Of a stretch of DNA of 64,000 bases, positions 14,925 through 41,452 are shown piece after piece. The first letter of the stretch is position 1. Each line of letters opens with the position of its first letter. A program made the position numbers and the translations under genes. The notes under the pieces were generated by a model, which worked only from the letters and a program-made list of their open reading frames with translations, did not search any database and had not been told where the DNA came from. Source of the DNA: Deltaproteobacteria bacterium (GTDB lineage: Bacteria > Desulfobacterota > GWC2-55-46 > DRQE01); contig JAJRSM010000044.1 in NCBI GenBank assembly GCA_024278765.1, positions 5,972-69,971 on the forward strand, in the 5' to 3' direction.

Positions 14925-15890
14925 ATGGGTTGTTTATTGTGTGGGAGTGCTGGCAAGTATAAAGGTCGCGCCGGATATAATGATTTTGTTGTCTCTGGGC
15001 GTAGCTATGCGATTAAATTCTGCCAAAGATGTAAGATCGGCAAGACAGTACCATTTCCCGATGAAGCAGAGCTCAGGGCTGTCTACTCTAGCGAACAGTA
15101 TAGGGAGGACGACGGTAAGAGGTTTCTGACACCGATAGAGTGGATGGTTCATGCTTTACGGATATTTCGCTGTAGGCGAGTGGAAAGGTGTTCTGAGAAG
15201 GGGCGTGTTCTGGATATAGGATGCGGTAGAAGCGATTTTCTCTCGGTTATGGCAGGGCGTGGCTGGGAGGTAACAGGTCTGGAGATGAACGAGCGTGCGG
15301 CAGATTACGCCAAAGACGCCCTTGGCCTTGACGTTCGAGTTGGAACTTTAAAAGATCAACGCTTTCCAAACGATCACTTTGATGCTGTCACCTTATGGCA
15401 CGTCTTTGAACACTTTCGTGACCCTGCGCTCTTGCTAAAAGAATGTAGACGCATACTTAAGCCAGGGGGGCTCTTGGTCGTAGCCATCCCAAACAGGGCA
15501 AGCCTTCAGGCACGGCTTACGGGTAATGGCTGGTTTCACCTTGATGTGCCGTACCATCTTTACCATTTTTCTCTTGGCAACTTAAAGAAGCTGATAGGTA
15601 AGGGTGGTTTTAAGTATGAGCAGGTTAATAACTATTCTTTTGAGTATAATCCTTACGGTCTTCTTCAGAGTTTTTATAACCGCCTAGGTTTTCGTCGCAA
15701 TCTGCTCTATGATCTGCTCAAGAGGACAAAAGACGGGAGCCCGCGTAGTGCTACTGTGTACTTGCAGATAGCCTGTACGGTTTTGACTCTGCCTGTTATG
15801 GTGCCGCTCTCTGTTCTTTTCTCTTACGCCGAGTCCTTTATGGGGCTGGGAGGTTCGATAGAGATCTATGCACGTAAAGGTAATAAGTAA
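14925..15890 (+). CDS. Class I SAM-dependent methyltransferase with an N-terminal Cys4 zinc ribbon.
   Basis: CLLCGS...CQRCK is followed by the SAM motif I VLDIGCGRSDF. Confidence 0.75.
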   Translation: MGCLLCGSAGKYKGRAGYNDFVVSGRSYAIKFCQRCKIGKTVPFPDEAELRAVYSSEQYREDDGKRFLTPIEWMVHALRIFRCRRVERCSEKGRVLDIGCGRSDFLSVMAGRGWEVTGLEMNERAADYAKDALGLDVRVGTLKDQRFPNDHFDAVTLWHVFEHFRDPALLLKECRRILKPGGLLVVAIPNRASLQARLTGNGWFHLDVPYHLYHFSLGNLKKLIGKGGFKYEQVNNYSFEYNPYGLLQSFYNRLGFRRNLLYDLLKRTKDGSPRSATVYLQIACTVLTLPVMVPLSVLFSYAESFMGLGGSIEIYARKGNK

Positions 15891-21883: not shown

Positions 21884-23026
21884 ATGAAGACTCGTTTTAA
21901 GGTCGCTCAAATCGAATTAACAAACCACTGTAATATGAAGTGCCCTTTTTGTCCTCAACCAACGTTGATGACAAGAAAAAAGCTTTTTATGGACTTAGAT
22001 CTATATTATAAAATAATAGACCAGGTTGTTGAAGATAATCTGGCCGACTGTGTTTCGTTGACTGGTCTTGGTGAGCCTACTCTTTATAAAAAATTAATAA
22101 GTGCGGTAGAATATGCAACTGATAAGGGGCTATCTGTAAAGGTCTCGACCAATGGGTTACTTTTGAACGTCGAGACCTTGCTGAACCTTTACAGAGCGCG
22201 TTTGGATAATTTGTTCTTCAGCTTGCAGATAATGGATGAAGAGGCTTACCGTGAAAGGTTGGATGGAAAAAATAAGCAAACCTTTAAAGAGTATTTAGAT
22301 AACCTTAAAGTGATTATCTCAACTCATATACGGAACAATCCACAGACCAAGCTACGTATATCTATCATGGGCAACTGGTATCTGCCACATAAAAATATAT
22401 TGGGACTTAGGTATTTTAATTTATCAACTGATCTGTTGCGTGATTTTATTGAGCCGATCTTCTCTCTTATAGAGAGCGAGAGTTCTTTGAAAAAGAAGAG
22501 TTTAAAGTTGAGCTTGGATGATATAAAGATTCCCAGGTTTTATGAAAATGACAGGGAGTACTGGATACTTGATAATTTGTCACTTGTCCTTAAAGAGGCT
22601 AATGGATGGGCCAATTCTATGGACGCCTCCGATGACTATGTACTTATACCGGCTAAGAAAGGTTTTTGTGTAGCACAAAAAAACATGTTTGAGATTTTTG
22701 CTGACGGTACTGTCTGCCTATGCTGTTTGGATTATGACGCTAAAACAACTTTAGGAAAACTTACGCTTGGTGGGAATGAACGATTGGTAGATATTTTATT
22801 TGAAGGTCGTGGTAAGCAAATTAAGGATAGTTTTGATAAAGGCAATATTATTCTACCGTTTTGCCAGCGATGTCTTGGAAAACGTCGCCATAAAAAGAAA
22901 TTGGTACATTATGGTAATATGATAAGATTTTATCCATTTAAGGTTATGGATGTTATGCTTAAAAATAGAAGTTCATTAATGACGAGAATACGTTATTCTG
23001 TGATCAATAAATTTTTCAAGGTGTAG
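21884..23026 (+). CDS. Radical SAM enzyme with a C-terminal SPASM/twitch Cys-rich domain.
   Basis: CNMKCPFC (CX3CX2C) near the N-terminus and C-terminal Cys clusters (CLCC...CQRC) support the call. Confidence 0.75.
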   Translation: MKTRFKVAQIELTNHCNMKCPFCPQPTLMTRKKLFMDLDLYYKIIDQVVEDNLADCVSLTGLGEPTLYKKLISAVEYATDKGLSVKVSTNGLLLNVETLLNLYRARLDNLFFSLQIMDEEAYRERLDGKNKQTFKEYLDNLKVIISTHIRNNPQTKLRISIMGNWYLPHKNILGLRYFNLSTDLLRDFIEPIFSLIESESSLKKKSLKLSLDDIKIPRFYENDREYWILDNLSLVLKEANGWANSMDASDDYVLIPAKKGFCVAQKNMFEIFADGTVCLCCLDYDAKTTLGKLTLGGNERLVDILFEGRGKQIKDSFDKGNIILPFCQRCLGKRRHKKKLVHYGNMIRFYPFKVMDVMLKNRSSLMTRIRYSVINKFFKV

Positions 23027-23196: not shown

Positions 23197-23799
23197 ATGG
23201 GACATGATGATATTATTGAAGACGACAGCGTGAAGTCCAAGGGTGCCCTAACTTGCTTGAATGTTGGATGTGGTAATGACATATTAGATGGGTATATTAA
23301 TCTTGATGCTGTAAAATTGGACGGGGTGGATGTTGTCCATGACTTGACCGTCTTTCCATGGCCTTTTGCTGATGATTATTTTGAAGAGATACGTATGATA
23401 AATGTACTTGAGCACTTGCCAGATACAGTCAAGGTCATGGAAGAGTTGTGGAGAATCTCAAAGGACGGAGCTAGCGTAGTCATACGTGTGCCGTACTGGA
23501 ATTGCTGGCAGTCCATAGGCGACCCCACGCACCTTAAGAGTTTTCATCAAAGAACTCTTGATTGCTTTGACCCATCAACGAAACAAGGCATGGAACGTTC
23601 TTATTATACAAAAGCGCGTTTTAAGATCAATTGCATTGGTTATTGGGTGCCTTTACTGCCTATTGAAGATGGTAGGGGCTGGTTTAAAGTAACTAATCCG
23701 GTTGCCAAGTTATTTATGACGGCCTTGTCTACATACCTAAGCAATATAATATGGGGACTGGAGTTTGAATTGATCACTTTAAAACATGAGAGGAAGTGA
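23197..23799 (+). CDS. Class I SAM-dependent methyltransferase.
   Basis: The LNVGCGNDILDGYINLD motif and a length of about 200 aa fit the family. Confidence 0.7.
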   Translation: MGHDDIIEDDSVKSKGALTCLNVGCGNDILDGYINLDAVKLDGVDVVHDLTVFPWPFADDYFEEIRMINVLEHLPDTVKVMEELWRISKDGASVVIRVPYWNCWQSIGDPTHLKSFHQRTLDCFDPSTKQGMERSYYTKARFKINCIGYWVPLLPIEDGRGWFKVTNPVAKLFMTALSTYLSNIIWGLEFELITLKHERK

Positions 23800-25680: not shown

Positions 25681-25685
25681 TTACT

Positions 25686-26438
25686 ATGACTGATAAAAAT
25701 TCATTGAATCTTTTTAGAGACCTTGATTCGGGTGCTTTTAAAAAGAAATTTATTTGTGAACTGAACTATGAATACAAGCCTCAGTTCAGTGTATTGTCTG
25801 AATTTGCAAGAAACCTGCTGAGTTTGACTTCTCCAGGTGCTATTGTGCTTGATATTGGAGCAGGCCGTTGTCAATGGAAGCGTCTTTTTACCGATTGTAT
25901 GTATATTGGTGTAGATAATTGTGTTGGTGATGATCAGTGGGAGTATAGTGCACTGGATTGTGTCGCTGATATTGCGAACTTGCCGATAAAGAGCAATTCA
26001 GTTGATGTTGTTATTTGCATGGCCGTGCTTGGCCATGTTCCTGAGCCGGGAAGGATTATAAGAGAGGCATATAGAGTCTTAAAACCCGGGGGCAGCTTTT
26101 TTTCTTTAAGTGAATTTGCCAAGGCTGAACATCAGGTGCCTTATGACTTTGTCAGGTTAACTGAGTTTGCACTGAAAAAATATACTGAAGATAGCGGTTT
26201 CTCTGTTGTCGATATATATGGTTCCAATTCATTTTACACATCAATTCTTAATCTTATTGAAAACTATACATGGAAGGTTTCGTATGGAGGGGTGAAGGCG
26301 GTGGTAAGGTTCTTACTTAAATTACTAATAAAATCAGGGTTGTTTGGCTTGCTTTATTGTATGTCGTCACGTAAAAAGACTGATCAGAATAATTTATTCC
26401 CTGTTTATTTTCTTACGCAATGTAAAAAAAATAAATAA
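25686..26438 (+). CDS. Class I SAM-dependent methyltransferase.
   Basis: VLDIGAGRCQW and VLKPGG motifs are present. Confidence 0.7.
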   Translation: MTDKNSLNLFRDLDSGAFKKKFICELNYEYKPQFSVLSEFARNLLSLTSPGAIVLDIGAGRCQWKRLFTDCMYIGVDNCVGDDQWEYSALDCVADIANLPIKSNSVDVVICMAVLGHVPEPGRIIREAYRVLKPGGSFFSLSEFAKAEHQVPYDFVRLTEFALKKYTEDSGFSVVDIYGSNSFYTSILNLIENYTWKVSYGGVKAVVRFLLKLLIKSGLFGLLYCMSSRKKTDQNNLFPVYFLTQCKKNK

Positions 26439-27847: not shown

Positions 27848-27864
27848 TTATTAGTAACGAGATC

Positions 27865-28054
27865 TTAGGGTTAATAACTGCCCATGGCGGGTCGAAGGCT
27901 GCAAACAAGAACGGTGTTAGGTCTTTGACTGGAGACTTCGAATAATGAGTTTTGAGATTTTAGGGTTGATAACCGCCCATGGCGGGTCGAAGGCTGCAAA
28001 CTAGAATGGTGTTAGGTCTTTGACTGGAGACTTCGAATAATGAGTTTTGAGATT
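27865..28054 (+). repeat. Tandem repeat of two 95-bp units (27865-27959, 27960-28054), with a third unit continuing into the gene from 28055; each unit is the leader plus first about 17 codons of the downstream cytidylyltransferase gene. A 19-codon decoy ORF runs 27945-28004.
   Basis: The period is 95 bp with about 93% identity between units; the decoy reads MSFEILGLITAHGGSKAAN* against the real start MSFEILGLITARGGSKTV. Confidence 0.85.
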
Positions 28055-28775: not shown

Positions 28776-29930
28776 ATGAGAATTGCTATCTCAACTTGCT
28801 CTATGGTTAGTTGTGACAAGGATTTTGCAGGGACAGGGCTCGGAGTTTATCTGGATAACCTGGTCACCTTCCTTCAGAAAGAAGCTTCTGACGATCAGTT
28901 TTATATCTTTATGCCCGAGAGCCAGCGCCGATTTTTCAAAATAAAGCATAAAAACTTCAAAGCTATATATCTCAAGGAGTATACGAACAGGCTCATTCCA
29001 GGGCTTTTGTGGTACTTTTTTTTACTACCTTTGCTTTTGAAACGCTATAAGATAGATTGTCTGCATATACCTGACTTTAGAAGGTTTCCTTTGATAAAGG
29101 TATGTCCTATTGTCTTGACGATTCACGATATGACAAACTTTATAGTCAAAGGTCGTCTGACAACGACCAAGAAGATATATAGATATTTTATTAAGTATGT
29201 CTTCTCTAAATATGCAGACAGGATAGTGACCGTATCTGATAATACAAAGAAAGACGTTGTAAATGTACTCGGGATAGATCCGGCGAAGATTACCGTAGTT
29301 CATAACGGTGTCTCAAAAGAGTTTTGCGTGAGAGAGAGAAAAAGTGCTTTAAAGGAGCTTAAGTCCTTTGACCCACCTGAAAGGTCAATCCTTTACGTCT
29401 CACGGCTTGAGCATCCTTTGAAAAATCATATTACGCTGCTCAGGGCCTACGCAAGGTGCAAAGAAGAGAAAGATTTCGCTCATAAATTGATATTTATAGG
29501 TGAGAGGTGGAGCGGTCATGAGGCTATTTTTGTTGAAATAAAGAGGTTAGGGTTGGGCGGTGATGTCATTATGTTAGAGAAGATATCGTTTAAGGCCCTT
29601 ACTCGTTTTTATAATATAGCAGACCTGTTTGTATTTCCTTCTTTATATGAAGGGTTTGGACTGCCTGCGGTTGAGGCCCTTGCAAGCGGAGTGCCTGTTA
29701 TTGCCTCTGATACCTCTTCTTTAAAAGAGATCGTTGGCGGCTCAGGGCTACTCTTTAAGCCCGGAGATGACCTGAATTTATCTGAGCTGATATTAAAGGT
29801 TTTAGATGATAAAAACCTGCGTAGTGATATGATACAAAAAGGGCTTTCGCGCAGCTCCGAGTATTGTTGGAAGGCCGTGGCATCATCGATGTTAAGTGTC
29901 TATAGATCCAGCGCATCACGGGTTCAATAA
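28776..29930 (+). CDS. GT4 (GT-B fold) glycosyltransferase.
   Basis: The C-terminal FVFPSLYEGFGLPAVEALASGVPVIASD motif matches the EX7E region. Confidence 0.85.
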   Translation: MRIAISTCSMVSCDKDFAGTGLGVYLDNLVTFLQKEASDDQFYIFMPESQRRFFKIKHKNFKAIYLKEYTNRLIPGLLWYFFLLPLLLKRYKIDCLHIPDFRRFPLIKVCPIVLTIHDMTNFIVKGRLTTTKKIYRYFIKYVFSKYADRIVTVSDNTKKDVVNVLGIDPAKITVVHNGVSKEFCVRERKSALKELKSFDPPERSILYVSRLEHPLKNHITLLRAYARCKEEKDFAHKLIFIGERWSGHEAIFVEIKRLGLGGDVIMLEKISFKALTRFYNIADLFVFPSLYEGFGLPAVEALASGVPVIASDTSSLKEIVGGSGLLFKPGDDLNLSELILKVLDDKNLRSDMIQKGLSRSSEYCWKAVASSMLSVYRSSASRVQ

Positions 29931-29931
29931 G

Positions 29932-31407
29932 ATGAAGATAACCCTCATACTAATAGAGATAAGAAGCGATATTCCGGGCTTTACCGGCAATTATTATGAA
30001 GGCGTCGGGGCTGTCTCGGCGGCCTTGGAGGGTGCTGGTAATGAGGTGAGTTTCCTGCACCTGACGCGTACGATGGAGAGGGGCGAGTTCATAGCAAGGC
30101 TTGAGCAGGACCGGCCAGGTATGGTCGCCTTCTCGGCTATGACCAACGGCTTTCATTACGCCAAAGAGATGACCGGCTGGGTAAAGGAATATAGCAAGGA
30201 TGTGATCGTCCTTTGCGGTGGTATTCACGCAACGCTAGACCCTGAGGACGTCATTAAGGTCGGTGCTATCGACTACGTCTGCCGTGGCGAGGGCGAAGAT
30301 CCTATGGTAGAACTTTGCGATGCGCTTGATAATTGCAAGAGCCCTAATTATATCTCCAATATATGGCTTCGAGATGGCAAGAAGGTAATAAGAAATAAGG
30401 TTCGTTCGACATATCAGGATCTGGACCGTTTTCCGCACCCTGATCGTGATATATTTGATTTTGATAATCTTCTGACGACCAAGGAGAGTTTTGCTACCTT
30501 TCTTGGGGGGCGAGGCTGTCCTTTTGCCTGTGCGTACTGTGCCAACCACGGAATGAAGGACCTTTATCCGAATAAGGGGCAGTATATAAGGTTTAAGACC
30601 GTAGACCGCCTAATGGACGAGATAGAGGTTGTTTTAAAGCGTTATCCTTATATTAAATATGTTGCTTTCTCCGATGACATTTTGCCTCTCAAAATCGACT
30701 GGCTGCGCGAGTTCGCCGATAAATACAAGGCGCGTATAAATCGTCCTTTTAAGTGTAATATTAACCCTATGCTCGTAAAAGACGAGACGATATCTCTTCT
30801 GCGTGCCGCCGGGTGTACGATGGTGGAGATCGGCGTTGAGAGCGGTAACGAGCGGATCAGGCGCGAGGTCTTAAACCGTAAGATCACCAACGAGGGGATG
30901 CTCAAGGCGACGCAGTTAATTCGCAGCTATGGGCTTAAGATTGCTACCTATAATATGGTCGGCGTGCCGGGTGAGAGTATTCGTGAGATACGTGATACTA
31001 TAAAGCTCAACGGCCAGATCGGGCCAGAGAAGATGTATGCATTTATCTTTTATCCTTACCCGGGTACGCGTTTACATGCATTTTGCAAGAAGGAAGGACT
31101 CTTGACCTCTTCAAGGTTTGATACCTACGCAGAGGGTACGATACTTAAGAGCAAGACCCTCACGGAAAAAGAGGTCGTCTTTGGCCACAGGTTTTTCAAG
31201 AGCTTTGCCAAGCTATATAAGAAGGCCAACAAGATGCCAAGCCCTCTTAATAAGATTTTGATGAAGTTACTGGATATTATTATTGTTGCAAAGCTGCCGT
31301 ACGGGCTTTTGATATTTACTCACTCGGTACTATACAGGACTGCGAGCTTCATGTACCTGAAGTTTGGCAGATACATCTATAACAGGCAAAAGGCATACTA
31401 CGGATGA
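29932..31407 (+). CDS. B12-binding domain radical SAM enzyme (class B radical SAM, methyltransferase-like).
   Basis: An N-terminal cobalamin-binding-like domain (VIVLCGGIHATLDPED) is followed by a radical SAM core (GGRGCPFACAYC). Confidence 0.75.
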   Translation: MKITLILIEIRSDIPGFTGNYYEGVGAVSAALEGAGNEVSFLHLTRTMERGEFIARLEQDRPGMVAFSAMTNGFHYAKEMTGWVKEYSKDVIVLCGGIHATLDPEDVIKVGAIDYVCRGEGEDPMVELCDALDNCKSPNYISNIWLRDGKKVIRNKVRSTYQDLDRFPHPDRDIFDFDNLLTTKESFATFLGGRGCPFACAYCANHGMKDLYPNKGQYIRFKTVDRLMDEIEVVLKRYPYIKYVAFSDDILPLKIDWLREFADKYKARINRPFKCNINPMLVKDETISLLRAAGCTMVEIGVESGNERIRREVLNRKITNEGMLKATQLIRSYGLKIATYNMVGVPGESIREIRDTIKLNGQIGPEKMYAFIFYPYPGTRLHAFCKKEGLLTSSRFDTYAEGTILKSKTLTEKEVVFGHRFFKSFAKLYKKANKMPSPLNKILMKLLDIIIVAKLPYGLLIFTHSVLYRTASFMYLKFGRYIYNRQKAYYG

Positions 31408-33572
31408 AACAGATTATACAGAACTATAAGACAGGTGAGTTAAAGGTAGAGAACGTCCCAGTGCCGTATCTCAGGCGTGGCGGGGTCTTGGTTAATAACG
31501 AATATTCGCTGATAAGTTCAGGGACAGAGCGCGGCAAGATAGAGATGGCCAGGGCTAATCTTCTGCAGAAGGCACGGCAAAGGCCGGATCTCGTTAAGCA
31601 GGTAATGCATAACGTCAAGAGCGAAGGCCTTGTGCCTACGGCAAAGAAGGTCTTTACCCGTCTGAATACTCCGATAAGCCTTGGTTATTGCTCGGCTGGT
31701 ATTGTCTCTGTCGTAGACGACGCCACAAGTGGCTTTAAAGTTGGCGACCGCGTGGCATGTGTTGGAGAGGGCTTTGCCTGCCACGCCGAGGTCGTCTATA
31801 TTCCGGGCGGCCTACTGGTAAAGGTCCCTGACGAGCTTACGCTTGATAAGGCCTCTTTCGCTCCACTCGGAGCAATTGCCATGCAGGGGGTCAGGTTGGC
31901 TGAGGTCGGACTTGGCGATAAGGTCGTTGTTCTGGGGCTGGGCCTGATAGGTCAACTCACAGTACAGCTCCTAAAGGCATCGGGTTGCCACGTGATTGGC
32001 GTGGATATCGATGACGAGAAGGTCGCTATGGCTACCGAGTTCGGAACTGATATGGCACTGAACCTGAAAGAGGCGGATACGGAACTTGGCGTAGAGGGCT
32101 TTACCTTTTCACGCGGCGCGGATGTCGTTATCATCACGGCATCAGCATCGACGAGCCAGCCAATAGAGACCGCCGGTAAGCTTTGCAGGGAAAAAGGCAA
32201 GGTCGTTCTGGTGGGCGCTGTGCCAATAGAGTTGCCGAGAAAAGAATACTATGAAAAGGAGCTGGACTTTGTCGTCTCCCGCGCCTTTGGCCCGGGCTCT
32301 TATGACGAATCCTATATCGGCGGTACTGATTATCCTTACGGCTATGTGCGCTGGACGGTTCAGAGGAATATGGAAGAGGTAATGAACCTTATGGTTAGCG
32401 GTAAGGTTCTGGTAGATAAACTCATAAGTGGCAGGTTTAAAATAGACGATGCTGTTAAGGCCTACGAGCTTGTGAGAAAGCCAGAGGGTATTGTTATGGG
32501 CGTACTCTTTGAGTACGACGGTAAGCCAGCGGTGCCGGGCAGGATAATGATATCGCAGAAGGCAGGTAAAACGCGTAGTAATGCCCGCTCCGTCGGTTTT
32601 ATCGGGGCAGGGAACTTTGCGCAGAGCTATCTTCTGCCTGAGCTAAAGAAAGCAGGTGGCATGGAGTTGCGCGGGGTTGCGACCAACAGACCGATTAGCT
32701 CCGACAGTGTTAGCCGCAAGTTCGGCTTTAACTACGGGACCTGCAATCATAGCGAGATATTAAAAGACAATGATATAGATACTATATTTATAGCAACGCG
32801 CCATGACTTGCACGGCCCTCTGACGGCACAGGCCTTGCGTGCCGGGAAATCCGTCTTTGTAGAAAAACCGCTTGCCCTGAATCTGGACGAATTAACTGAG
32901 ATAACTCAGGCGTACGGCGCAGCCGATAGCCCCTACCTTATGGTAGGTTTTAACAGAAGGTTCTCGCCGCTATCGGTTAAGTTAAAGAAGCATTTTGAGA
33001 GTATAAAGACGGCCAAGGCAATCAACTTTCGCGTTAATGCAGGGCCTTTGCCGCCCGACCACTGGCTCTTGGATCCGGTAGAAGGAGGGGGACGTATAAT
33101 CGGCGAGGGGTGCCATTTTATAGATTATCTCCAGTTTGTGACAGGGGCCAGACCGGTAAGGGTATATGCTGTATCAATGGACGGAAAGACGCGTGAAGCA
33201 GCGCAGAACGTACAGATAACAATTGATTTCTCTGATGGCTCGGTCGGTAATATTGCCTATATAGCCGACGGAGATCCGTCTTTTTCCAGAGAATATCTAG
33301 AGGTCTTCGGTGGTGGTAGAGTTGCCGTGCTGGATGATTTTAAGAAACTGACCTTGAGTGCCAAGGGTAAAGAAAAGGTCCATACCCTGCGCGGTAAGGA
33401 TATGGGGTATGGTGGTGAGATAAGCGAGGTCATAAAGACATTGACAGGTGGCGGCCCGGCCCCTATATCCTTTGCAGATCTGGTTGCAACGACGCTTACG
33501 AGCTTTGCCGTCAATGAGTCTTTGGTAACCGCTGCACCCGTGACTATCGCATTGGAGGTCTCTGGTGAGTAG
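31404..33572 (+). CDS. Bi-domain oxidoreductase with an N-terminal zinc-type MDR alcohol dehydrogenase fused to a C-terminal Gfo/Idh/MocA dehydrogenase.
   Basis: The N-terminus has GDRVACVGEGFACHAEVV plus a GLGLIGQL Rossmann; the C-terminus has VGFIGAGNFA and FVEKPL. Confidence 0.75.
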   Translation: MKQIIQNYKTGELKVENVPVPYLRRGGVLVNNEYSLISSGTERGKIEMARANLLQKARQRPDLVKQVMHNVKSEGLVPTAKKVFTRLNTPISLGYCSAGIVSVVDDATSGFKVGDRVACVGEGFACHAEVVYIPGGLLVKVPDELTLDKASFAPLGAIAMQGVRLAEVGLGDKVVVLGLGLIGQLTVQLLKASGCHVIGVDIDDEKVAMATEFGTDMALNLKEADTELGVEGFTFSRGADVVIITASASTSQPIETAGKLCREKGKVVLVGAVPIELPRKEYYEKELDFVVSRAFGPGSYDESYIGGTDYPYGYVRWTVQRNMEEVMNLMVSGKVLVDKLISGRFKIDDAVKAYELVRKPEGIVMGVLFEYDGKPAVPGRIMISQKAGKTRSNARSVGFIGAGNFAQSYLLPELKKAGGMELRGVATNRPISSDSVSRKFGFNYGTCNHSEILKDNDIDTIFIATRHDLHGPLTAQALRAGKSVFVEKPLALNLDELTEITQAYGAADSPYLMVGFNRRFSPLSVKLKKHFESIKTAKAINFRVNAGPLPPDHWLLDPVEGGGRIIGEGCHFIDYLQFVTGARPVRVYAVSMDGKTREAAQNVQITIDFSDGSVGNIAYIADGDPSFSREYLEVFGGGRVAVLDDFKKLTLSAKGKEKVHTLRGKDMGYGGEISEVIKTLTGGGPAPISFADLVATTLTSFAVNESLVTAAPVTIALEVSGE

Positions 33573-34344
33573 TGGTGGCGCAGCTTTGCATGCTGGTAAG
33601 GTCGATATCCTCGGCATGCACTTTGATCCTCTGACTATGGACGAGGCGTTGGCTCGTATTGATGGTTTTGTTCTGGAGGGCGGTCCTCACAAGATTTTTA
33701 CTCCGAATGTCGCCCTTTTTGTCTGGTCTCGCTCCAAGCCGTGCCAGAAACGTTTCTACGATAGCTGTGACCTCTTACCTGTTGATGGCAGAGGGCTATA
33801 TTATGCATCAAGGCTCTTGGGTACACCTGTGCCGGAGGTCTTGAGCGCGGTCTTTATATTCTTTAAAATACTGGAGATTGCACCGAAAAAAGGGTATAAA
33901 TTATACTTCCTCGGTACAAAGGACGATATACTGAATAAGGCCGTAAAAGAGGCCCGTAAAAAGTATCCCGGGATAAAGATAGTAGGAGCTAGAAACGGCT
34001 ATTTTGATGAGTCAGATGAGGCGGAGGTCGCAGAAGATATCCGTGCCTCAGGTGCTGACATGCTTTTTTTAGGGATGAGTAGCCCTAAAAAAGAAGATTT
34101 TGTCATTAGGAATCTGGATCGCACCGGGGTCTCTGTCTGTCTGGGTGTTGGCGGTAGCTTTGACGTGCTGGCAGGGATCTACCATCTGGCCCCCGACTGG
34201 GTAGCAAAGGCCGGTATAGAATGGCTATATCGTCTTATACAAGAGCCAAGGCGGATGTGGAAAAGATATCTTACGACCAACTCTGTCTTTGCCTACCTGC
34301 TTATAAAAGAACTTATAAAAAGACCTTTTAGGAGAGTTTTATGA
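33565..34344 (+). CDS. WecG/TagA/CpsF-family (GT26) glycosyltransferase.
   Basis: VDILGMHFDPLTMDEALARI and PVDGRGL are family motifs. Confidence 0.8.
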   Translation: MSSGGAALHAGKVDILGMHFDPLTMDEALARIDGFVLEGGPHKIFTPNVALFVWSRSKPCQKRFYDSCDLLPVDGRGLYYASRLLGTPVPEVLSAVFIFFKILEIAPKKGYKLYFLGTKDDILNKAVKEARKKYPGIKIVGARNGYFDESDEAEVAEDIRASGADMLFLGMSSPKKEDFVIRNLDRTGVSVCLGVGGSFDVLAGIYHLAPDWVAKAGIEWLYRLIQEPRRMWKRYLTTNSVFAYLLIKELIKRPFRRVL

Positions 34345-35402
34345 ATGACAAGGATTACTTAGAGGCATATAAAGGCAAGAAAATTCTCGTAACCGGCGGT
34401 GCCGGTGCTATAGGCAGTAATCTTGTAAGGGCTCTGGCCGGTACAGGGGCCGCGATGATAATGGTCCTTGACAACCTGGTCTCGGGTGAACGCTGGAACC
34501 TGCCTGATCTGCCAAATATCATGTTTATCGAGGGCGATATCTGTGATGAGGTAAAGCTTAAGAGGGTCTTTTTTGAGCAGCCTGATTACGTCTTTCATCT
34601 TGCTGCATTTTTTGCCAATCAGAACTCGGTCGATCACCCCGAGAGCGACCTTGATGTAAATGGCATGGGTACGCTCAGGCTGTTGGAGTATTCGCAGATG
34701 ACCAAGCCCACGCGTTTTGTATACGCTTCTTCCGGCTGCTCTATCTACGGTAGTGCCGCGCCGTTGCCGCTTAAAGAAGAATTTATGAGCATGCATCTGA
34801 GTACACCTTACCAGATAACCAAGATGCTCGGTGAGCTTTACTGTAACTTCTTTTATCATCACTACGAACTGCCGGTAGTAAAGGCAAGGTTCTTTAACTC
34901 TTACGGCCCGGGCGAGGTTCCGGGGCAGTACCGTAACGTTATACCGAACTTTATCTACTGGGCGATGAAGGGCGTAGCCCTTCCGATTACAGGCACGGGC
35001 GAGGAGACGCGTGACTTTACTTATGTCGGCGATCTGGTAGACGGATTGCTAAGGGCAGGACACTTTGATGCTGCAATCGGGCAAGAGTTTAATCTGGCCT
35101 CCGGTAAAGAGACGCAGATAGTGGATCTAGCCAATATGATAAATGATATTGTTGGTAATGAAGCGGGCATTAACTTTGTTAGTAAAAGAAAGTGGGATAC
35201 AAAGAGTAGGTTGAGGGCCTCCGTTGACAGGGCCAGTGAGTTGATCGGGTACGACCCGCAGACCGAGTTTAAAGAAGGTCTGGCTGAGGCCATAAAGTGG
35301 TTTAAAGATAACTGGGATCTGGTCAATGCGGCTGCCTCATTCGGCCCGGGGATGACCTCGGCTGTAAGGGACGCAAAAGATAAGGATAAAGCGAGTTGTT
35401 AA
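34341..35402 (+). CDS. NAD-dependent sugar-nucleotide epimerase/dehydratase (SDR).
   Basis: The Rossmann motif KILVTGGAGAIGSNLV and the YxxxK region are present. Confidence 0.75.
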   Translation: MNDKDYLEAYKGKKILVTGGAGAIGSNLVRALAGTGAAMIMVLDNLVSGERWNLPDLPNIMFIEGDICDEVKLKRVFFEQPDYVFHLAAFFANQNSVDHPESDLDVNGMGTLRLLEYSQMTKPTRFVYASSGCSIYGSAAPLPLKEEFMSMHLSTPYQITKMLGELYCNFFYHHYELPVVKARFFNSYGPGEVPGQYRNVIPNFIYWAMKGVALPITGTGEETRDFTYVGDLVDGLLRAGHFDAAIGQEFNLASGKETQIVDLANMINDIVGNEAGINFVSKRKWDTKSRLRASVDRASELIGYDPQTEFKEGLAEAIKWFKDNWDLVNAAASFGPGMTSAVRDAKDKDKASC

Positions 35403-36532
35403 AGGCCCTAATAGTCTTTGGCACAAGGCCGGAGGCCATAAAGATGGCACCGCTGGTCTTGGAGTTTATGCGGCGACCCGATATAGAATGCAAGGTCTGC
35501 GTAACGGCGCAGCACAGGGAGATGCTGGATCAGATACTAAAGGTATTTGACATTACCCCTGATTATGACCTTGATATTATGCGGAAGGATCAAGATCTCT
35601 TTGACGTAACCTCAGCCGTATTACTTAATATCAAGGATGTTATAAATGAGGTTGCCCCTGATATAGTGCTGGTGCAGGGTGATACAACAACGGCAATGGC
35701 AACGGCTATGGCGGCCTTCTACCTGAAGGTCCCGGTTGGTCATGTCGAAGCCGGGCTTCGCACCGGTGATAAGGCAGCACCTTTCCCAGAAGAGATCAAC
35801 AGGCGCATAGTAAGTACTATGGCCGATTATCATTTTGTCCCTACCGAGTGGTCAAAGGGTAATCTGATAGCTGAAAATATCGCAGAGCAAGATATATATG
35901 TAACCGGGAATACCGTAGTTGATGCTTTGCTTGAGGTCTCAGGGAGGGCACGCACTGCTTCGGCAGAGCATTTCAAAGGTCTTTTTGATTTTATAGATGA
36001 GACGAGAAGGATCATCCTTATAACCGGGCATAGGCGAGAGAACTTCGGGGAGGGCTTTAAAGAAATATGCGCTGCTATAAGAGAGCTTGCAGAGAGCTTC
36101 CCTGACTGTGATTTTATATACCCGGTGCACCTGAACCCGAATGTCAGAAGGCCAGTTGATGAGATACTCGGGGCTGAAGACCTGAAGAATATTTACCTTA
36201 TCGAGCCGCTTGAGTATGAGCCGTTTGTATATTTGCTTGGCAAGGCGTACCTGATACTAACTGATTCCGGCGGTATTCAGGAAGAGGCTCCGAGCCTTGG
36301 TAAGCCTGTTCTTGTAATGCGCGAAGTTACGGAAAGACCAGAGAGTATTGATGCAGGCTCTGCCATACTGGTAGGGGCAGGACGCGAGAGGATAGTTAAA
36401 GAGGTCTCCCGGTTATTAAATAACGCCTCAGCTTATAACGAGATGGCCAAGGTTCATAACCCGTATGGTAATGGTAAGGCATCTCTAAGTATCTCTGATA
36501 TATTGACAAAAGATCATAGTAATCTTATTTAA
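35396..36532 (+). CDS. wecB: UDP-N-acetylglucosamine 2-epimerase (non-hydrolysing).
   Basis: KALIVFGTRPEAIKMAPLV, HVEAGLRT and DSGGIQEEAPSLGKPVLVMR are WecB motifs. Confidence 0.88.
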   Translation: MLKALIVFGTRPEAIKMAPLVLEFMRRPDIECKVCVTAQHREMLDQILKVFDITPDYDLDIMRKDQDLFDVTSAVLLNIKDVINEVAPDIVLVQGDTTTAMATAMAAFYLKVPVGHVEAGLRTGDKAAPFPEEINRRIVSTMADYHFVPTEWSKGNLIAENIAEQDIYVTGNTVVDALLEVSGRARTASAEHFKGLFDFIDETRRIILITGHRRENFGEGFKEICAAIRELAESFPDCDFIYPVHLNPNVRRPVDEILGAEDLKNIYLIEPLEYEPFVYLLGKAYLILTDSGGIQEEAPSLGKPVLVMREVTERPESIDAGSAILVGAGRERIVKEVSRLLNNASAYNEMAKVHNPYGNGKASLSISDILTKDHSNLI

Positions 36533-36562
36533 AGTTCATATCTATCCTGTAGGAGTAGCCAG

Positions 36563-37981
36563 GTGAAGGCAAGACATTTTTCACTGCGCCCGTTGGCGAT
36601 ATTTCTTGATATCATAACCATACTGCTGTCCTTTTACGTCTCTTTTATTCTGCGTGGTGTGCTTCTGCGTTTTTATCAGTTCGGCAATGTTACAGAGTTG
36701 CATGATTACGTCTACGTCTTGATAATTGTCCTTGCCGGTTCAATATGGCTTCTGACTATTTTTGGTGCTTACAAAAAACCTATGTTTGTCTCTCTATGGA
36801 AGGAGCTACAGATAGTTGTAAAGGTCGTAGTCCTGGGTTCGTTGATACTTTTTGCAGGTATTTTCTTTTTGCAGCTGGATGTATCGTTCCTACCAAGAAC
36901 CTTTATGCTGCTCTTTTTACTGGTCAACTTTTCTATCTTAATCTTTCAAAAGACGATTATGTATTCTCTTATGAGCAGAGAACGTATGAAGGGAGTCGGT
37001 CTTCAGAGTGCCATTGTAGTTGGCGACGGTGATGGGGTTGCGCGTTTCTTGCATACGTTAAAGGTTCATCCCGAGTATGGCTTGAAGGCAATCGGTGTTT
37101 TCTGTGATGACGAATCAACCGCCTCTACAGTTAAGGATTTAGCTACACTTGGCCCTGTAGAAGGGTTAGGAGACTTTCTTCACAAAAACCATGTTGACGA
37201 GGTTATTATTATACCTGAGAAAGACGTTAATATAGAGGAAATATTAGTGGTCTGTGAAGAAGAAGGTGTCAAGACAAGGATCGTGCCGGATCTTCTAAAC
37301 AGGCTTGATATTGATGTCGCGCTCGACAGACTTGGCGATATGATTGCTATTAATCTTTACGGTCATCATGAAAAAGAATGGCAGATATTCTTTAAGCGTG
37401 CTATGGATATTACCGTATCCGCAATAATGATCTTATTGCTTTCACCAATCTTAATAGCGATATCTATTGCTATTAAGATAAACTCTCCGGGGCCTGTCTT
37501 TTACCATTGGAGGGTCATGGGTTTTAATAAAAAGCCCTTTACAAGCTGGAAGTTCAGGACGATGATCGTTAATGCCGATGAGATGAAAAAAGAGCTTATC
37601 AAAGAAAATGAAATGAGCGGCCCTGTCTTTAAGATCAAGAACGACCCGAGGATCACCCCTATCGGGCGGGTTCTCAGGAGGTTCAGCATGGATGAACTAC
37701 CTCAGCTCTTCAGTGTCCTAAAAGGGGATATGAGCCTTGTCGGCCCAAGGCCTCCACTGGTATCAGAGGTGGAAAAATTCGAACGTTGGCATGGCAAGAA
37801 ACTTCGGATCAAACCTGGGATAACGTGCCTCTGGCAGGTAAGCGGACGAAATGCGATAAAAGATTTTGACGAGTGGGTACGCCTGGATGTAAAATATATT
37901 GAGAACTGGTCGCTCTGGCTGGATATTAAAATATTATTTAAGACAATACCAGCTGTCTTTTTGGAACAGGACATTAACTAA
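36563..37981 (+). CDS. Polyprenyl-phosphate hexose-1-phosphate transferase, a WbaP/PglC-family priming glycosyltransferase.
   Basis: TM helices, a CoA-binding-like domain and a C-terminal 'bacterial sugar transferase' domain (FKIKNDPRITPIGRVLRRFSMDELPQLFSVLKGDMSLVGPRP) are present. Confidence 0.88.
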   Translation: MKARHFSLRPLAIFLDIITILLSFYVSFILRGVLLRFYQFGNVTELHDYVYVLIIVLAGSIWLLTIFGAYKKPMFVSLWKELQIVVKVVVLGSLILFAGIFFLQLDVSFLPRTFMLLFLLVNFSILIFQKTIMYSLMSRERMKGVGLQSAIVVGDGDGVARFLHTLKVHPEYGLKAIGVFCDDESTASTVKDLATLGPVEGLGDFLHKNHVDEVIIIPEKDVNIEEILVVCEEEGVKTRIVPDLLNRLDIDVALDRLGDMIAINLYGHHEKEWQIFFKRAMDITVSAIMILLLSPILIAISIAIKINSPGPVFYHWRVMGFNKKPFTSWKFRTMIVNADEMKKELIKENEMSGPVFKIKNDPRITPIGRVLRRFSMDELPQLFSVLKGDMSLVGPRPPLVSEVEKFERWHGKKLRIKPGITCLWQVSGRNAIKDFDEWVRLDVKYIENWSLWLDIKILFKTIPAVFLEQDIN

Positions 37982-37982
37982 G

Positions 37983-38045
37983 ATGAAGCTACTCGTGACC
38001 GGCGGAGCCGGAAGAAGTGTTTGCTACAGGCAGGATATTAAATGA
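37983..38045 (+). other. Twenty-codon upstream ORF (MKLLVTGGAGRSVCYRQDIK) formed by a partial duplication of the 5' end of the downstream epimerase gene; its stop overlaps the real start (ATGA).
   Basis: Nucleotides 37983-38012 are about 85% identical to 38042-38071. Confidence 0.6.
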
Positions 38046-39175
38046 AGATACTTGTAACCGGCGGAGCCGGGTTTATTGGCTCTCATACTGTTGACGCACT
38101 TTTGCTTAAAGGGCATGAGGTGCGTATCCTCGATAGCTTTGAGAAACCAGTACATCTTAAGGGCAGGCCGAGCTATATACCAAAAGAGGTCGAGGTCATT
38201 GAGGGCGACGTGCGTGATAAGGCTGCGTGGGAAGAAGCCCTTGTTGGTATCGATGCAGTCTATCATTTTGCTGCTTATCAGGATTATCTGCCGGATTTTT
38301 CCAAGTTCTTTCATGTCAATAGCGTTGGGACTTCTTTGCTTTACGAGGTCGCTGTTGAACGTAAACTGCCGCTTCAGAAGGTAGTCGTAGCCTCTTCGCA
38401 GGCGGTATACGGCGAGGGCAGGCATAACTGCCCTGCCTGCAAGACGGCGTATTACCCTGATATCCGCAGTTCTGATGTCATGGATCGTGCGCAGTGGAAT
38501 CATAGGTGTCCTACCTGTAAAGGCCCTTTAGAGTTCAGTCAGACCGATGAGTCCCGTATAAATCCGCAGAACCAATACGCACTTAGTAAATATACGCAAG
38601 AACTTATAGCCATTAACTTTGGTCGTCGTTATAATATACCAACAGCTGCTATGCGCTACTCTATCGTACAGGGGCCGAGACAATCTTTTTATAATGCTTA
38701 TTCTGGGGCGTGTAGGATTTTCTGTCTGAGATATTTCTTTGATCGGTCTCCGGCGATATACGAGGACGGCAACCAAGTACGTGACTTTGTAAATATCAAG
38801 GATGTTGTAGCAGCCAATATTGCTGTTCTTGAAAGTGATAAGGCCGATTACGAGGTCTTTAATGTTGGCGGAGGCCATGCCTATACCGTCTTCGAGTTTG
38901 ACGCGACCGTCAGGAAGGTCTTTGGTAAAGAGGCCATGGCGCCGCGCATCCCAGGTGAATATAGGTTTGGCGATACTCGTCATATATTATCAGATGTGAG
39001 TAAACTTAAAGCCCTTGGCTGGAAGCCCGAATCTACGCCCGAGGATAGCGTAAGAGAATATATGGAGTGGTTAAAGAGTCAGGTCGATATCGAAGACGTC
39101 CTGGATTACGCAGAGCAGAAGATGAAGGATATGGATGTGGTTAGAAAGGCTGACCTAAAAGGAGATACCCTATGA
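38042..39175 (+). CDS. NAD-dependent epimerase/dehydratase (SDR) carrying an inserted CxxC...CxxC zinc-ribbon segment.
   Basis: MKILVTGGAGFIGSH is the SDR N-terminus; the insertion reads NCPACKTAYYPD...HRCPTCKG. Confidence 0.75.
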   Translation: MKILVTGGAGFIGSHTVDALLLKGHEVRILDSFEKPVHLKGRPSYIPKEVEVIEGDVRDKAAWEEALVGIDAVYHFAAYQDYLPDFSKFFHVNSVGTSLLYEVAVERKLPLQKVVVASSQAVYGEGRHNCPACKTAYYPDIRSSDVMDRAQWNHRCPTCKGPLEFSQTDESRINPQNQYALSKYTQELIAINFGRRYNIPTAAMRYSIVQGPRQSFYNAYSGACRIFCLRYFFDRSPAIYEDGNQVRDFVNIKDVVAANIAVLESDKADYEVFNVGGGHAYTVFEFDATVRKVFGKEAMAPRIPGEYRFGDTRHILSDVSKLKALGWKPESTPEDSVREYMEWLKSQVDIEDVLDYAEQKMKDMDVVRKADLKGDTL

Positions 39176-40161
39176 TAATCACCCAGACGCCTTTGCGGAT
39201 CAGTCTTTTTGGCGGAGGTACGGACTTTAAGGATTTCTACCAGAAAGACGGCGGAGCTGTCTTGAGTCTTGGTATTGATAAGTATATCTACGTAATAGTC
39301 AAAGAGCGTTTTGATGAAGATATCTATATAAATTATTCCAAAAAAGAAATTGTAAAGTGTGTTGACGATATCGAGCATGAGCTTGTAAAAGAGTCGATGC
39401 GAAAGACCGGTGTAAAGGCCGGTATAGAGATAACGACCTTGGCTGATATACCCAGCGAGGGTAGTGGGCTTGGCTCGTCATCAAGTGTTACCGTAGGGCT
39501 TTTAAATGCCCTCTATGCCTATCAGGGTGAGCAGGTAACGCTTGAGCAGCTGGCACGTGAGGCATGTGAGATAGAGATTGATATCCTAGGCAAGCCAATC
39601 GGCGTGCAGGATCAGTATATAGCCGCCTACGGAGGTTTGCGTTTTATCGAGTTTAGTAAAGATGGTAGTATTACCGTTGAGCGGATGCCGCTGAAGGAAG
39701 AAGAAAAGAGGCGGCTCGTATCAAACTTACTAATATTCTATACGGGTAAGACCCGCAGCTCTTCTAATGTATTGACTGAGCAGAAGGCGAATATAGGTAA
39801 GAGGCTGACAGAACTTGGCACGATAAAAGATCTTGCATATAGTGCAAAAGAGCAGATACTCGCAGGTGATATCGATAATGTCGGTGCTCTGATGCAGAAG
39901 GGTTGGGAGGCTAAAAAGAAGCTCGCCTCTAATGTGACGACCCCGGAGATAGACGAGCTATACGCTAAGGCAATCGTTGCCGGCGCGCTCGGTGGTAAGA
40001 TTTCAGGGGCAGGCTCTGGTGGTTTTTTGCTTCTGTATTGCCCACGTGAGGTGCAGAACTCAGTACGCGAGGCGATGAACGGCCATATGGAGTTGCCTTT
40101 CCTACTTAGCCGAGACGGCAGTAAGGTGATATTTAACAACAGAGGCTATGAGTGGAAATGA
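39172..40161 (+). CDS. GHMP-family sugar kinase (D-glycero-D-manno-heptose 7-phosphate kinase HddA-like).
   Basis: The GHMP motif PSEGSGLGSSSSVTVG is present, and the gene sits between an epimerase and nucleotidyltransferase/GmhA genes. Confidence 0.7.
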   Translation: MIITQTPLRISLFGGGTDFKDFYQKDGGAVLSLGIDKYIYVIVKERFDEDIYINYSKKEIVKCVDDIEHELVKESMRKTGVKAGIEITTLADIPSEGSGLGSSSSVTVGLLNALYAYQGEQVTLEQLAREACEIEIDILGKPIGVQDQYIAAYGGLRFIEFSKDGSITVERMPLKEEEKRRLVSNLLIFYTGKTRSSSNVLTEQKANIGKRLTELGTIKDLAYSAKEQILAGDIDNVGALMQKGWEAKKKLASNVTTPEIDELYAKAIVAGALGGKISGAGSGGFLLLYCPREVQNSVREAMNGHMELPFLLSRDGSKVIFNNRGYEWK

Positions 40162-40859
40162 AGGCCGTTCTGCTCGCCGCAGGGAAGGGGACAAGGCTGC
40201 GCCCATTGACCGATTCAGTGCCAAAGTGTCTGATCCCTATCGGCGGCGAGCCAATGCTCACCATATGGTTGCGTTTGCTGAAGAAACATGGTATAGAAGA
40301 AGTCCTTATTAATACGCATTATCACGCAGAGCGAGTAGATGATTTTCTGGCCAGTGATGATTCCGGGGTCAAGGTCAAGGCCGTATACGAAGAAGAGCTA
40401 CTTGGTAGCGCCGGTACGGTACTGGCAAATAGAGATTTTTTCAGAGATGAAAAAGATTTTTTTATTATCTATGCCGACAACCTGACCAATATGAATATTA
40501 CTAAGATGGCAAAATTTCACCGGTGCAATAACAAAAAAGGCCTTCTTACTATGGGGCTGCACAGGGCTACGAACCCGCAGGCCTGCGGCATAGCAGGCAC
40601 TGACAAGGACGGTCTGATAACGTCTTTTGTAGAGAAGCCGGAGCACCCTGAATCTAACCTTGCAAATGCCGGTGTATACGTCGCTGGCCAAGAGATCTTC
40701 GACTATATACCGCAGAGAAAAGGGGTTGTGGACCTTGGTTTTGATCTTCTGCCGATTTTGGTCAATAAGATGTATGGCTATGAAATAGAAGAATACCTTT
40801 TGGATATCGGTACGTTAGATAACTACGAACGCGCTAACAAAGAGTGGAGCAACGAATGA
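40152..40859 (+). CDS. Sugar-1-phosphate nucleotidyltransferase (HddC-like heptose-1-P guanylyltransferase candidate).
   Basis: MKAVLLAAGKGTRLRPLTDSVPKCLIPIGGEPML is the family's N-terminal motif. Confidence 0.75.
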   Translation: MEMKAVLLAAGKGTRLRPLTDSVPKCLIPIGGEPMLTIWLRLLKKHGIEEVLINTHYHAERVDDFLASDDSGVKVKAVYEEELLGSAGTVLANRDFFRDEKDFFIIYADNLTNMNITKMAKFHRCNNKKGLLTMGLHRATNPQACGIAGTDKDGLITSFVEKPEHPESNLANAGVYVAGQEIFDYIPQRKGVVDLGFDLLPILVNKMYGYEIEEYLLDIGTLDNYERANKEWSNE

Positions 40860-41449
40860 GTAAAGATTTTTTCGACCACTATATAGAAGAAGAACAGAGG
40901 CTGCTTGGCGAGATCTCGGAGGCGGAGTTTAATAAGGTGATAGAGCTCTTTCAGACTGCTTATGAAGATGGCAGGCAGGTCTTTGTCTTTGGCAATGGCG
41001 GCAGCGGCTCGACGGCCTCGCACTTTGCCTGCGATATCAATAAAGGGGTCTCCTACGGCCATGACAAACGCTTTAAGGTTATCTGCCTCAATGACAATAT
41101 AGCGACAATACTCGCCTATGCCAATGACACCTCGTATAATGATATTTTTGTTGAGCAGCTTAAGAACTTCATGCAGCCTGGAGATCTGGTCTTTGGAATA
41201 TCCGGCAGTGGAAACTCAGAGAATGTCCTGCGTGCTGTGGAGTATGGTAATGGTAACAGTGCGATAACATTAGGTTTTACAGGCTTTTCGGGTGGCAGGC
41301 TTGGTAAGGTTGCCGAATTATCTATAAATGTGGCCTCAGAAGATATGCAGAAGATCGAGGATATACACCTAATTATGACCCATATGATAATGCAGAGTTT
41401 CTGTAAGAAACTAGGCCTGCCTTGTAAAAAAGACGGTGAAAAGAGCTAA
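40844..41449 (+). CDS. gmhA: SIS-domain sedoheptulose-7-phosphate isomerase.
   Basis: VFVFGNGGSGSTASHFACD and a length of about 200 aa match GmhA. Confidence 0.85.
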   Translation: MEQRMSKDFFDHYIEEEQRLLGEISEAEFNKVIELFQTAYEDGRQVFVFGNGGSGSTASHFACDINKGVSYGHDKRFKVICLNDNIATILAYANDTSYNDIFVEQLKNFMQPGDLVFGISGSGNSENVLRAVEYGNGNSAITLGFTGFSGGRLGKVAELSINVASEDMQKIEDIHLIMTHMIMQSFCKKLGLPCKKDGEKS

Positions 41450-41452
41450 GTT

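Follow-up and report, generated by a model that had tools for sequence, protein, structure and literature searches.

A 64,000-nucleotide (nt) stretch of a Deltaproteobacteria bacterium assembly (contig JAJRSM010000044.1, positions 5,972 to 69,971; hereafter the window) carries, within a long polysaccharide biosynthesis locus, a gene on the + strand at 29932-31407 that codes for a cobalamin-type (class B) radical S-adenosylmethionine (SAM) enzyme, abbreviated B12-rSAM. The encoded enzyme probably tailors a sugar of the envelope glycan, because the gene sits in a glycan cluster and its clade often adjoins glycosyltransferases. More tentatively, and at somewhat less than even chances, it would act as a sugar C-methylase that methylates an unactivated sp3 carbon of this glycan. 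The presumed substrate is a sugar, either a free nucleotide-sugar or a lipid-linked one, and methyl transfer is the presumed outcome, since the sequence alone cannot show that carbon is methylated. The kind of enzyme is known and the gene adds a new member to it; its clade is an orphan one, large, widespread and uncharacterised: an exhaustive homologue search returns 4,177 representatives (at 50% identity) with E<=1e-30, and among the 150 best full-length matches only one exceeds 50% identity and none bears a functional name.

Domains and cofactor motifs of the protein

The open reading frame (ORF) extends on the + strand from 29896 (GTG) or 29932 (ATG) to 31407, and the alignment of homologues indicates that translation begins at the ATG at 29932 rather than at the upstream GTG, because proteins of 486-491 amino acids (aa) align from residue 1 with 100% coverage. 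The 491-aa product contains a PF02310 B12-binding domain (residues 24-128, E 4.4e-21, 75 bits vs a cutoff of 32) and a PF04055 Radical_SAM domain (residues 193-359, E 1.1e-26), both matched in Pfam far beyond chance. The translation of window positions 30511-30546, inside the gene, reads RGCPFACAYCAN. The gene and the elements of its product are as follows, with coordinates in the window.

29932..31407, + strand: cobalamin-type (class B) radical SAM enzyme gene of an orphan clade, 491 aa (ORF; Pfam B12-binding and Radical_SAM)
29932..30336, + strand: N-terminal Rossmann-type cobalamin-binding domain, ~aa 1-135 (PF02310 and secondary structure of the model)
30127..30147, + strand: "downstream Cbl-binding motif" after beta3, A66-F-S68-A-M70-T-N72 (translation)
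30217..30222, + strand: Gly-Gly motif G96-G97 at the end of beta4, pocket of the dimethylbenzimidazole tail (translation)
30286..30297, + strand: Gly-Glu motif G119-E-G-E122 at the start of alpha5 (translation)
30508..31008, + strand: radical SAM core, aa 193-359 (PF04055)
30517..30540, + strand: C196-x3-C200-x2-C203, ligands of the SAM-cleaving [4Fe-4S] cluster (translation; invariant in 40/40 family members)
31165..31401, + strand: C-terminal helical region, aa 412-490, moderately hydrophobic and poorly conserved in sequence

The AlphaFold2 model of the protein has a predicted local distance difference test score (pLDDT) of 94.4 and a predicted template modelling score (pTM) of 0.90, and in it the B12 domain consists of five parallel strands flanked by helices (pLDDT >95); this domain, searched alone, matches the B12-domain structure 4q37. 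A membrane anchor in the C-terminal region was considered and set aside, as the best 19-mer reaches a borderline Kyte-Doolittle value of 1.81 (aa 449) and the hydrophobicity is not kept across the family, which makes it a weak hint at most.

The hallmarks of base-off, His-off cobalamin binding, defined on the OxsB, TsrM and TokK structures, comprise Gly-Gly on beta4, Gly-Glu where alpha5 begins, (G/A)-x-(S/T)-x-X following beta3, and a beta1-alpha1 loop that is long and devoid of a His ligand (PMC9204698). All four are present in the protein and conserved in an alignment of 40 family members. Specifically, the post-beta3 motif retains A/G in 38/40 members, S68 in 35/40, and S/T at position 71 in 40/40; in the Gly-Gly motif, G96 is kept in 40/40 and G97 in 36/40, with beta4 at residues 92-96 of the model; G119-E-G-E122 is kept in at least 36 of the 40, and alpha5 begins at residue 122 in the model. 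The beta1-alpha1 loop measures 14-15 residues and is free of His in the window protein, although some other members of the family carry a His there. The cysteines C196, C200 and C203 of the CxxxCxxC motif are invariant (40/40). The pattern A66-x-S68-x-M70-x-N72 is the same as that of A70-x-S72-x-Y74-x-W76 in TokK, and TokK, CysS, TsrM, MgmA and OxsB share with the window protein the GG, GE and A/G-x-S/T-x-X motifs together with the succession of Rossmann domain, radical SAM barrel and C-terminal domain; their identity to it is 14-18%, and their substrates are a carbapenem, pantetheinyl/peptide substrates, tryptophan and a nucleoside.

The initial annotation had singled out an absent or degenerate B12-binding motif as a sign against its proposal; the motif proves intact, because the four hallmarks are present and conserved, the model is confident, and the B12 domain matches 4q37. 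Its assignment of B12-binding and radical SAM domains to 29932-31407 is likewise confirmed by the Pfam matches, the CxxxCxxC motif and the base-off hallmarks. AprD4 does not bind cobalamin (PMC12931638) and shows that a Rossmann-like N-terminal domain is, by itself, no proof of cobalamin binding; the window protein is a predicted cobalamin binder. As a side observation, residue 72 (nt 30145-30147) is Asn in the window protein and either Asn (15/40) or His (15/40) in the family, and it falls on Trp76 of TokK, the residue closest to cobalt, in a register that derives from motif matching and not from structural superposition. A His at this position could mean His-on cobalamin in some members.

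Glycan context of the gene and of its relatives

The + strand from ~2.3 to 42 kb of the window is occupied by one long same-strand polysaccharide locus of the Wzx/Wzy type (~40 kb). It encodes a GDP-mannose dehydratase, an epimerase/reductase and two PMT_2 (GT-C) proteins; a NeuB-cupin fusion, a HAD phosphatase and a PseF-like cytidylyltransferase; a Wzy_C protein, a Polysacc_synt_3 flippase, glycosyltransferases (GT) of families GT2 (two) and GT4 (one), and a Glyphos_transf protein; a nucleotidyltransferase, SDR and DegT set for an amino-deoxy sugar; a WecG/TagA protein, a UDP-N-acetylglucosamine (UDP-GlcNAc) 2-epimerase and a Bac_transf initiating transferase; and a heptose-type set of SIS, GHMP kinase and nucleotidyltransferase. 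The B12-rSAM gene lies in this locus in a tight same-strand operon, which supports a glycan role: 1 nt separates the stop codon of the preceding GT4 gene from its ATG, and its own stop codon is overlapped by the ATG of the following oxidoreductase gene (ATGA).

28776..29930, + strand: GT4 glycosyltransferase in a variable slot (Glycos_transf_1 9e-33, Glyco_transf_4 2e-21)
31404..33572, + strand: two-domain oxidoreductase of 722 aa (MDR/ADH_zinc_N and GFO/IDH/MocA; Pfam)
29932..40945, + strand: block collinear with locus L086 at ~77-81% nt identity (BLASTN; L086 ends there)

The alignment by BLASTN of the window with L086, the locus of a 91%-identical B12-rSAM, separates conserved from variable neighbours. 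The collinear block comprises, in order, the B12-rSAM, the oxidoreductase, WecG/TagA, an SDR epimerase, the UDP-GlcNAc 2-epimerase, Bac_transf, an SDR, the GHMP kinase, the nucleotidyltransferase and the beginning of the SIS gene, and the pairing of the B12-rSAM with the two-domain oxidoreductase is thereby kept in both loci. The homology also spans the cytidylyltransferase gene (27859-28740) and restarts exactly at the B12-rSAM start codon (29932), while the glycosyltransferases between these flanks are unrelated, namely the GT4 in the window (28776-29930) and a GT9 in L086 (961-2145). The arrangement is that of a clean swap of a one-gene cassette, GT4 for GT9, between flanks of ~78-81% nt identity, with the right breakpoint exactly at the start codon. 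The initial annotation had described the enzyme as lying next to a GT4; such a gene does end 1 nt upstream, but the adjacency is an accident of a variable slot, because L086 holds an unrelated GT9 in the same position. The B12-rSAM belongs instead to the conserved right-hand block, with the initiating steps Bac_transf, 2-epimerase and WecG, because homology resumes at its start codon.

At the left edge of the shared sequence, a 95-nt tandem repeat at 27859-28087 (2.4 copies, 92% matches) duplicates the 5' leader of the PseF-like cytidylyltransferase gene together with its initial ~16 codons; the real start of this gene is at 28040, and the upstream copy forms a mini-ORF of 19 codons (ATG at 27945, MSFEILGLITAHGGSKAAN and a stop codon). 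Positions 1-293 of L086 carry the same array, with a period of 94 and 3.1 copies.

Among the eight homologues at 40-91% identity, six lie in polysaccharide loci, with the following gene orders.

L086: cytidylyltransferase, GT9, B12-rSAM, oxidoreductase, WecG and onward
L001: PglF-like dehydratase, three B12-rSAMs in tandem, GT4
L003: methyltransferase, B12-rSAM, GT4
L087: methyltransferases, radical SAM-SPASM, GT4
L088: DegT, WbqC, PIG-L, two tandem B12-rSAMs, Wzy
L090: methyltransferase, GFO/IDH/MocA, GT2, GT4

A one-genome-per-species scan of the wider family adds 80 loci at 28-39% identity, almost all from metagenome-assembled genomes, which belong to Planctomycetota, Desulfobacterota, Chloroflexota, Actinomycetota, Acidobacteriota, Omnitrophota, the candidate phyla radiation (CPR) and DPANN archaea. 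Genes were called with a simple caller that reproduced database gene calls, and the ±1/±2 neighbours of 72 loci were scanned with Pfam. The 263 neighbours include 47 glycosyltransferases (~18%; 16 GT4, 14 GT2 and 17 GT9), 20 further B12-rSAM paralogues and 11 class-I methyltransferases. Glycosyltransferases make up ~1-2% of the genes of a typical genome, and their share among the near neighbours therefore amounts to a roughly ten-fold enrichment. Two to four B12-rSAM homologues occur in 20/74 loci (27%), in tandem for example in L001, L088, L022 and L052. GT9-like genes are present in 15/76 loci, mostly one to three genes away from the B12-rSAM and on the same strand, and the stop and start codons of the GT9 and B12-rSAM genes overlap in L020, L023, L014, L056 and L086 (Syntrophorhabdus, Scalinduaceae, Omnitrophota and the L086 locus), so that such overlapping pairs recur in several phyla.

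Candidate sugar methylation and its rivals

In the proposed mechanism, the [4Fe-4S] cluster held by C196, C200 and C203 would reductively cleave SAM to yield the 5'-deoxyadenosyl radical, which would abstract a hydrogen atom from a sugar carbon; the sugar radical would then receive a methyl group from methylcobalamin bound base-off/His-off in the N-terminal Rossmann domain, and the resulting cob(II)alamin would be reduced and re-methylated by a second SAM. C-methylation is favoured because the dual-cofactor scaffold is intact, most characterised members of this enzyme class are C-methylases, paralogues occur in arrays, and there are precedents on sugars (GenK, GenD1, MoeK5). The overall fold, which equals that of the cobalamin radical SAM structures TsrM, MgmA, TokK, CysS and OxsB, also counts in its favour. 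BotRMT1-3 and PctJ/N/O methylate different sites of one product. They are instances of several B12-rSAM methylases working in one pathway, and in the sequence similarity network of a 2026 review, which sorts 83,589 B12-rSAM sequences into more than 100 groups, C-methyltransferases are found in every group that has a characterised member (PMC12931638).

Sugar C-methylation has its precedents within this enzyme class in GenK, GenD1 and MoeK5 (PMC9204698). One of the closest by description is MoeK5 of the moenomycin pathway of Streptomyces ghanaensis, a cobalamin radical SAM enzyme and single-site Csp3 methylase of lipid-linked oligosaccharide biosynthesis (PMC9204698, PMC12931638). MoeK5 co-localises with Fom3 and HpnJ in the similarity network (PMC12931638), and HpnJ is also the profile best matched by the window protein. 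It differs in belonging to actinomycete secondary metabolism rather than to an envelope-glycan locus. The target of MoeK5 is a uronic-acid unit. GenK and GenD1 of gentamicin and Fms7 of fortimicin are alike by description in that they are cobalamin radical SAM enzymes that C-methylate unactivated aminosugar carbons (PMC9204698), but their substrates are free pseudo-oligosaccharide antibiotics, whereas the clade of the window protein resides in glycan loci of anaerobes beside GT9 or GT4 genes. The initial annotation had cited GenK alongside Fom3-type enzymes. GenK, GenD1 and MoeK5 did not appear among the NCBIfam matches of the protein or of the 40 family members.

Several observations weigh against sugar C-methylation, and the first group concerns family placement. 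The NCBIfam scan of the protein and of the 40 clade members reaches no curated cutoff, and the profile ranking is identical in all 40, none of which comes close to a cutoff. The nearest profiles are those of the non-methylases HpnJ (TIGR03471; 123.3 bits vs a cutoff of 577.6, best E 3e-50 among the 40 members) and BchE (TIGR02026; 116.9 bits vs 481), followed by the P-methyltransferase PhpK (TIGR04479; 109.4 bits vs 600), the "ladderane" lipid-modifying B12-rSAM (100 bits vs 360) and the diol dehydratase AprD4 (NF033070; 77.5 bits vs 500, over residues 156-431 only). The best solved structure by sequence is the aminosugar-bound AprD4 (PDB 6fd2, E 9e-17), which covers the radical SAM half and leaves the N-terminal domain uncovered, and AprD4 is also best by fold (E 2e-22, template modelling (TM) score 0.67). 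AprD4 is a non-methylating sugar diol dehydratase, and methylases and non-methylases of this class have no clear distinguishing structural features (PMC12931638); in the fold search, AprD4, TsrM, MgmA, TokK, CysS and OxsB are equivalent (E 1e-22 to 1e-18, query-normalised TM 0.61-0.72), and the ranking does not part the methylases from OxsB or AprD4. The second group concerns the genomic setting: the 64-kb window, which has no Rfam match of any kind, contains no gene for cobalamin biosynthesis or uptake and no cobalamin riboswitch, two of the eight close homologues (L089, L091) are surrounded by unrelated genes, and in ~40% of the more distant loci single-sequence detection recognises neither a glycosyltransferase nor a nucleotide-sugar gene within 10 kb.

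The initial annotation would have regarded clustering with non-methylating families as contrary to its proposal of a C-methylated sugar, and on this point the outcome is ambiguous, with HpnJ (123) and BchE (117) just ahead of the methylase PhpK (109) and all of them far below their cutoffs. A C-methylated sugar is thus a reasonable prior and not a supported conclusion: the domains, the neighbours and the polysaccharide setting of that proposal stand, and as a whole it is partly supported.

The main rival, which is unlikely but has to be weighed seriously, is a non-methylating radical enzyme that acts on a sugar through an HpnJ-like ring contraction, an AprD4-like 1,2-diol dehydration or an oxidation, with a keto or radical-derived product handled by the translationally coupled NAD(P) oxidoreductase (31404-33572), as AprD3 follows AprD4. 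AprD4 acts on an aminosugar in apramycin C3' deoxygenation, and its reliance on a separate NAD(P)H reductase recalls the coupled oxidoreductase of the window. The ATGA overlap with the 722-aa MDR and GFO/IDH/MocA protein, the persistence of this pairing in L086, and the GFO/IDH/MocA gene near another close homologue (L090) argue in this direction, as do the rank of HpnJ and BchE among the curated profiles and that of AprD4 among PDB matches by both sequence and fold. HpnJ, which takes part in hopanoid cyclitol-ether formation, shares the two-domain layout and acts on a lipid-attached sugar, glucosamine; the reaction proposed for it is a contraction of the glucosamine ring in the hopanoid glycoside and not a methylation (PMC9204698). 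Conversely, the profile scores miss their cutoffs by a factor of 4-5 and differ by no more than 15 bits from that of the methylase PhpK, the AprD4 profile aligns with a part of the protein, and AprD4 lacks the cobalamin that the full set of motifs predicts here. HpnJ differs further in its setting, since no hopanoid-pathway annotation (hpnI, hpnK, squalene-hopene cyclase) occurs among the annotated ORFs of the window; likewise, no photosynthesis genes, the context of BchE, were found in it. A general pair of B12-rSAM and two-domain oxidoreductase was considered and rejected: outside the window, the oxidoreductase stands beside a family member in the near-identical L086 alone, and the three further matches across 87 loci are weak, at 33-52 bits, and lie 5-10 kb from the B12-rSAM. 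Arrays of paralogues, moreover, fit multi-site methylation better.

It is improbable that the substrate is not a glycan but a lipid, a cofactor or a peptide and that the position in the locus is incidental. The two close homologues among unrelated genes, the distant loci devoid of glycan genes and the 100-bit score of the lipid-modifying "ladderane" profile are compatible with this explanation, which is countered by the embedding of the gene in an operon with overlapping or 1-nt junctions, by the collinearity with L086 that begins exactly at its start codon, inside the glycan block, and by the share of glycosyltransferases among the near neighbours. The link to glycans is strong in the near clade but no more than statistical across the wider family, because of the ~40% of distant loci that show no glycan gene.

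The least probable explanation is a methylase directed to a target outside the sugar ring, such as an acyl, amino-acid, glycerol or phosphonate substituent of the glycan, possibly by PhpK-like P-methylation: PhpK is the third-best profile and non-sugar substituents of the glycan are likely because a CDP-glycerol-type phosphotransferase (26438) and a cytidylyltransferase (28040) are encoded in the locus, but the PhpK score is far under the 600-bit cutoff, the annotated genes of the window include no phosphoenolpyruvate (PEP) mutase or other phosphonate gene, and the family-wide partners are glycosyltransferases and not phosphonate genes.

Neighbouring genes and possible implications for envelope glycans

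Further enzymes that employ SAM are encoded in the same locus.

14925..15890, + strand: class-I SAM methyltransferase (Methyltransf_23 2.8e-27)
21884..23026, + strand: second radical SAM enzyme, radical SAM and SPASM without a B12 domain, 380 aa (Pfam)
23197..23799, + strand: borderline class-I methyltransferase-like ORF (Methyltransf_11, 23.5 bits vs a cutoff of 21.2)
25686..26438, + strand: class-I SAM methyltransferase (Methyltransf_11 6.9e-15)

The initial annotation had counted three class-I methyltransferases in the locus, and those at 14925 and 25686 are solid, while the ORF at 23197 is only borderline, with a Methyltransf_23 score below the cutoff and no NCBIfam match. The class-I methyltransferases found beside homologues elsewhere are orthologous neither to each other nor to those of the window. 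A conserved module of B12-rSAM and class-I methyltransferase was accordingly discarded, as similarity among the adjacent methyltransferases of L003, L004, L087, L089 and L090 is confined to the generic SAM-binding region; such neighbours indicate methyl-rich glycans in general and not a fixed two-gene module.

The SPASM enzyme (21884-23026) falls in no curated family, its best match being a tungsten-cofactor maturase profile (91 bits vs a cutoff of 380). In 12/87 loci, proteins that match it (phmmer E<=1e-5) are encoded no more than 10 kb from a B12-rSAM homologue, and the one in L087 is annotated as Radical_SAM and SPASM. The G+C content drops to 0.36-0.38 at 22001-26000 from ~0.45-0.50 elsewhere, over the borderline methyltransferase, the flippase and the methyltransferase at 25686, a dip that is typical of the laterally exchanged, serotype-specific core of a glycan locus. 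Predicted internal promoters (29 vs 20.7 ± 4.9 in shuffled sequence) and terminators (12 vs 11.0 ± 3.7) are at or near expectation.

The gene at 7321-8868 (+ strand) codes for a NeuB-type nonulosonate/ulosonate synthase that carries a cupin domain at its C terminus (515 aa), and it is followed by a HAD phosphatase gene; the fusion scores far below the NeuB and PseI cutoffs. The 558-aa ORF at 9533-11209 (+ strand) has no Pfam or NCBIfam match. The heptose-type set at 38042-42058 (+ strand; SDR, GHMP kinase, nucleotidyltransferase and SIS isomerase) ends in a His_Phos_1 protein (1.7e-49), whereas GmhB, the usual phosphatase of the heptose pathway, is of the HAD type. A link of the B12-rSAM to the heptose pathway was tried and rejected as weak, with SIS/GmhA-like genes in only 6/87 loci, one of them with a GT9.

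The minus-strand half of the window holds housekeeping genes, including a XerD-like integrase, GlnD, AmiC, MutS, BamB, MiaB and ATP-citrate-lyase-like genes. The last of these are two adjacent genes at 59400-63451 (- strand) that resemble ATP-citrate lyase or citryl-CoA synthetase (Citrate_bind and ATP-grasp_2; CoA_binding and Succ_CoA_lig), a pair that may point to a reductive tricarboxylic acid (TCA) cycle in the host.

The B12-dependent radical SAM enzymes covered by reviews are those of antibiotics, cofactors, lipids and peptides (PMC9204698, PMC12931638), and the words "polysaccharide", "glycan" and "sugar" are absent from the main text of the 2026 review (PMC12931638). The literature consulted yielded no characterised B12-rSAM from a surface-polysaccharide locus (O-antigen, capsule or S-layer). 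The clade may conceivably, though this is a doubtful extension, consist of broadly distributed cobalamin radical SAM enzymes that form modules with GT9 or GT4 transferases, tailor the envelope glycans (lipopolysaccharide core/O-antigen, S-layer, archaeal) of anaerobes among bacteria and archaea, and install C-methyl-branched or radically rearranged sugars. If the clade does not act on glycans, the gene is one more unassigned B12-rSAM. It is a reasonable biochemical target, and, if the proposal is true, the recurrent GT9 and B12-rSAM pairs would offer a defined entry point to one unexplored group of this vast superfamily. A radical, B12-dependent layer of glycan chemistry, so far known only from antibiotics, cofactors and lipids, would then operate in primary cell-envelope biosynthesis; carbon-methyl or rearranged residues, misread as O-methyl by mass spectrometry, would be present in the surface sugars of many anaerobes, candidate phyla and DPANN archaea among them, and the structure of their glycans would depend on the supply of B12.

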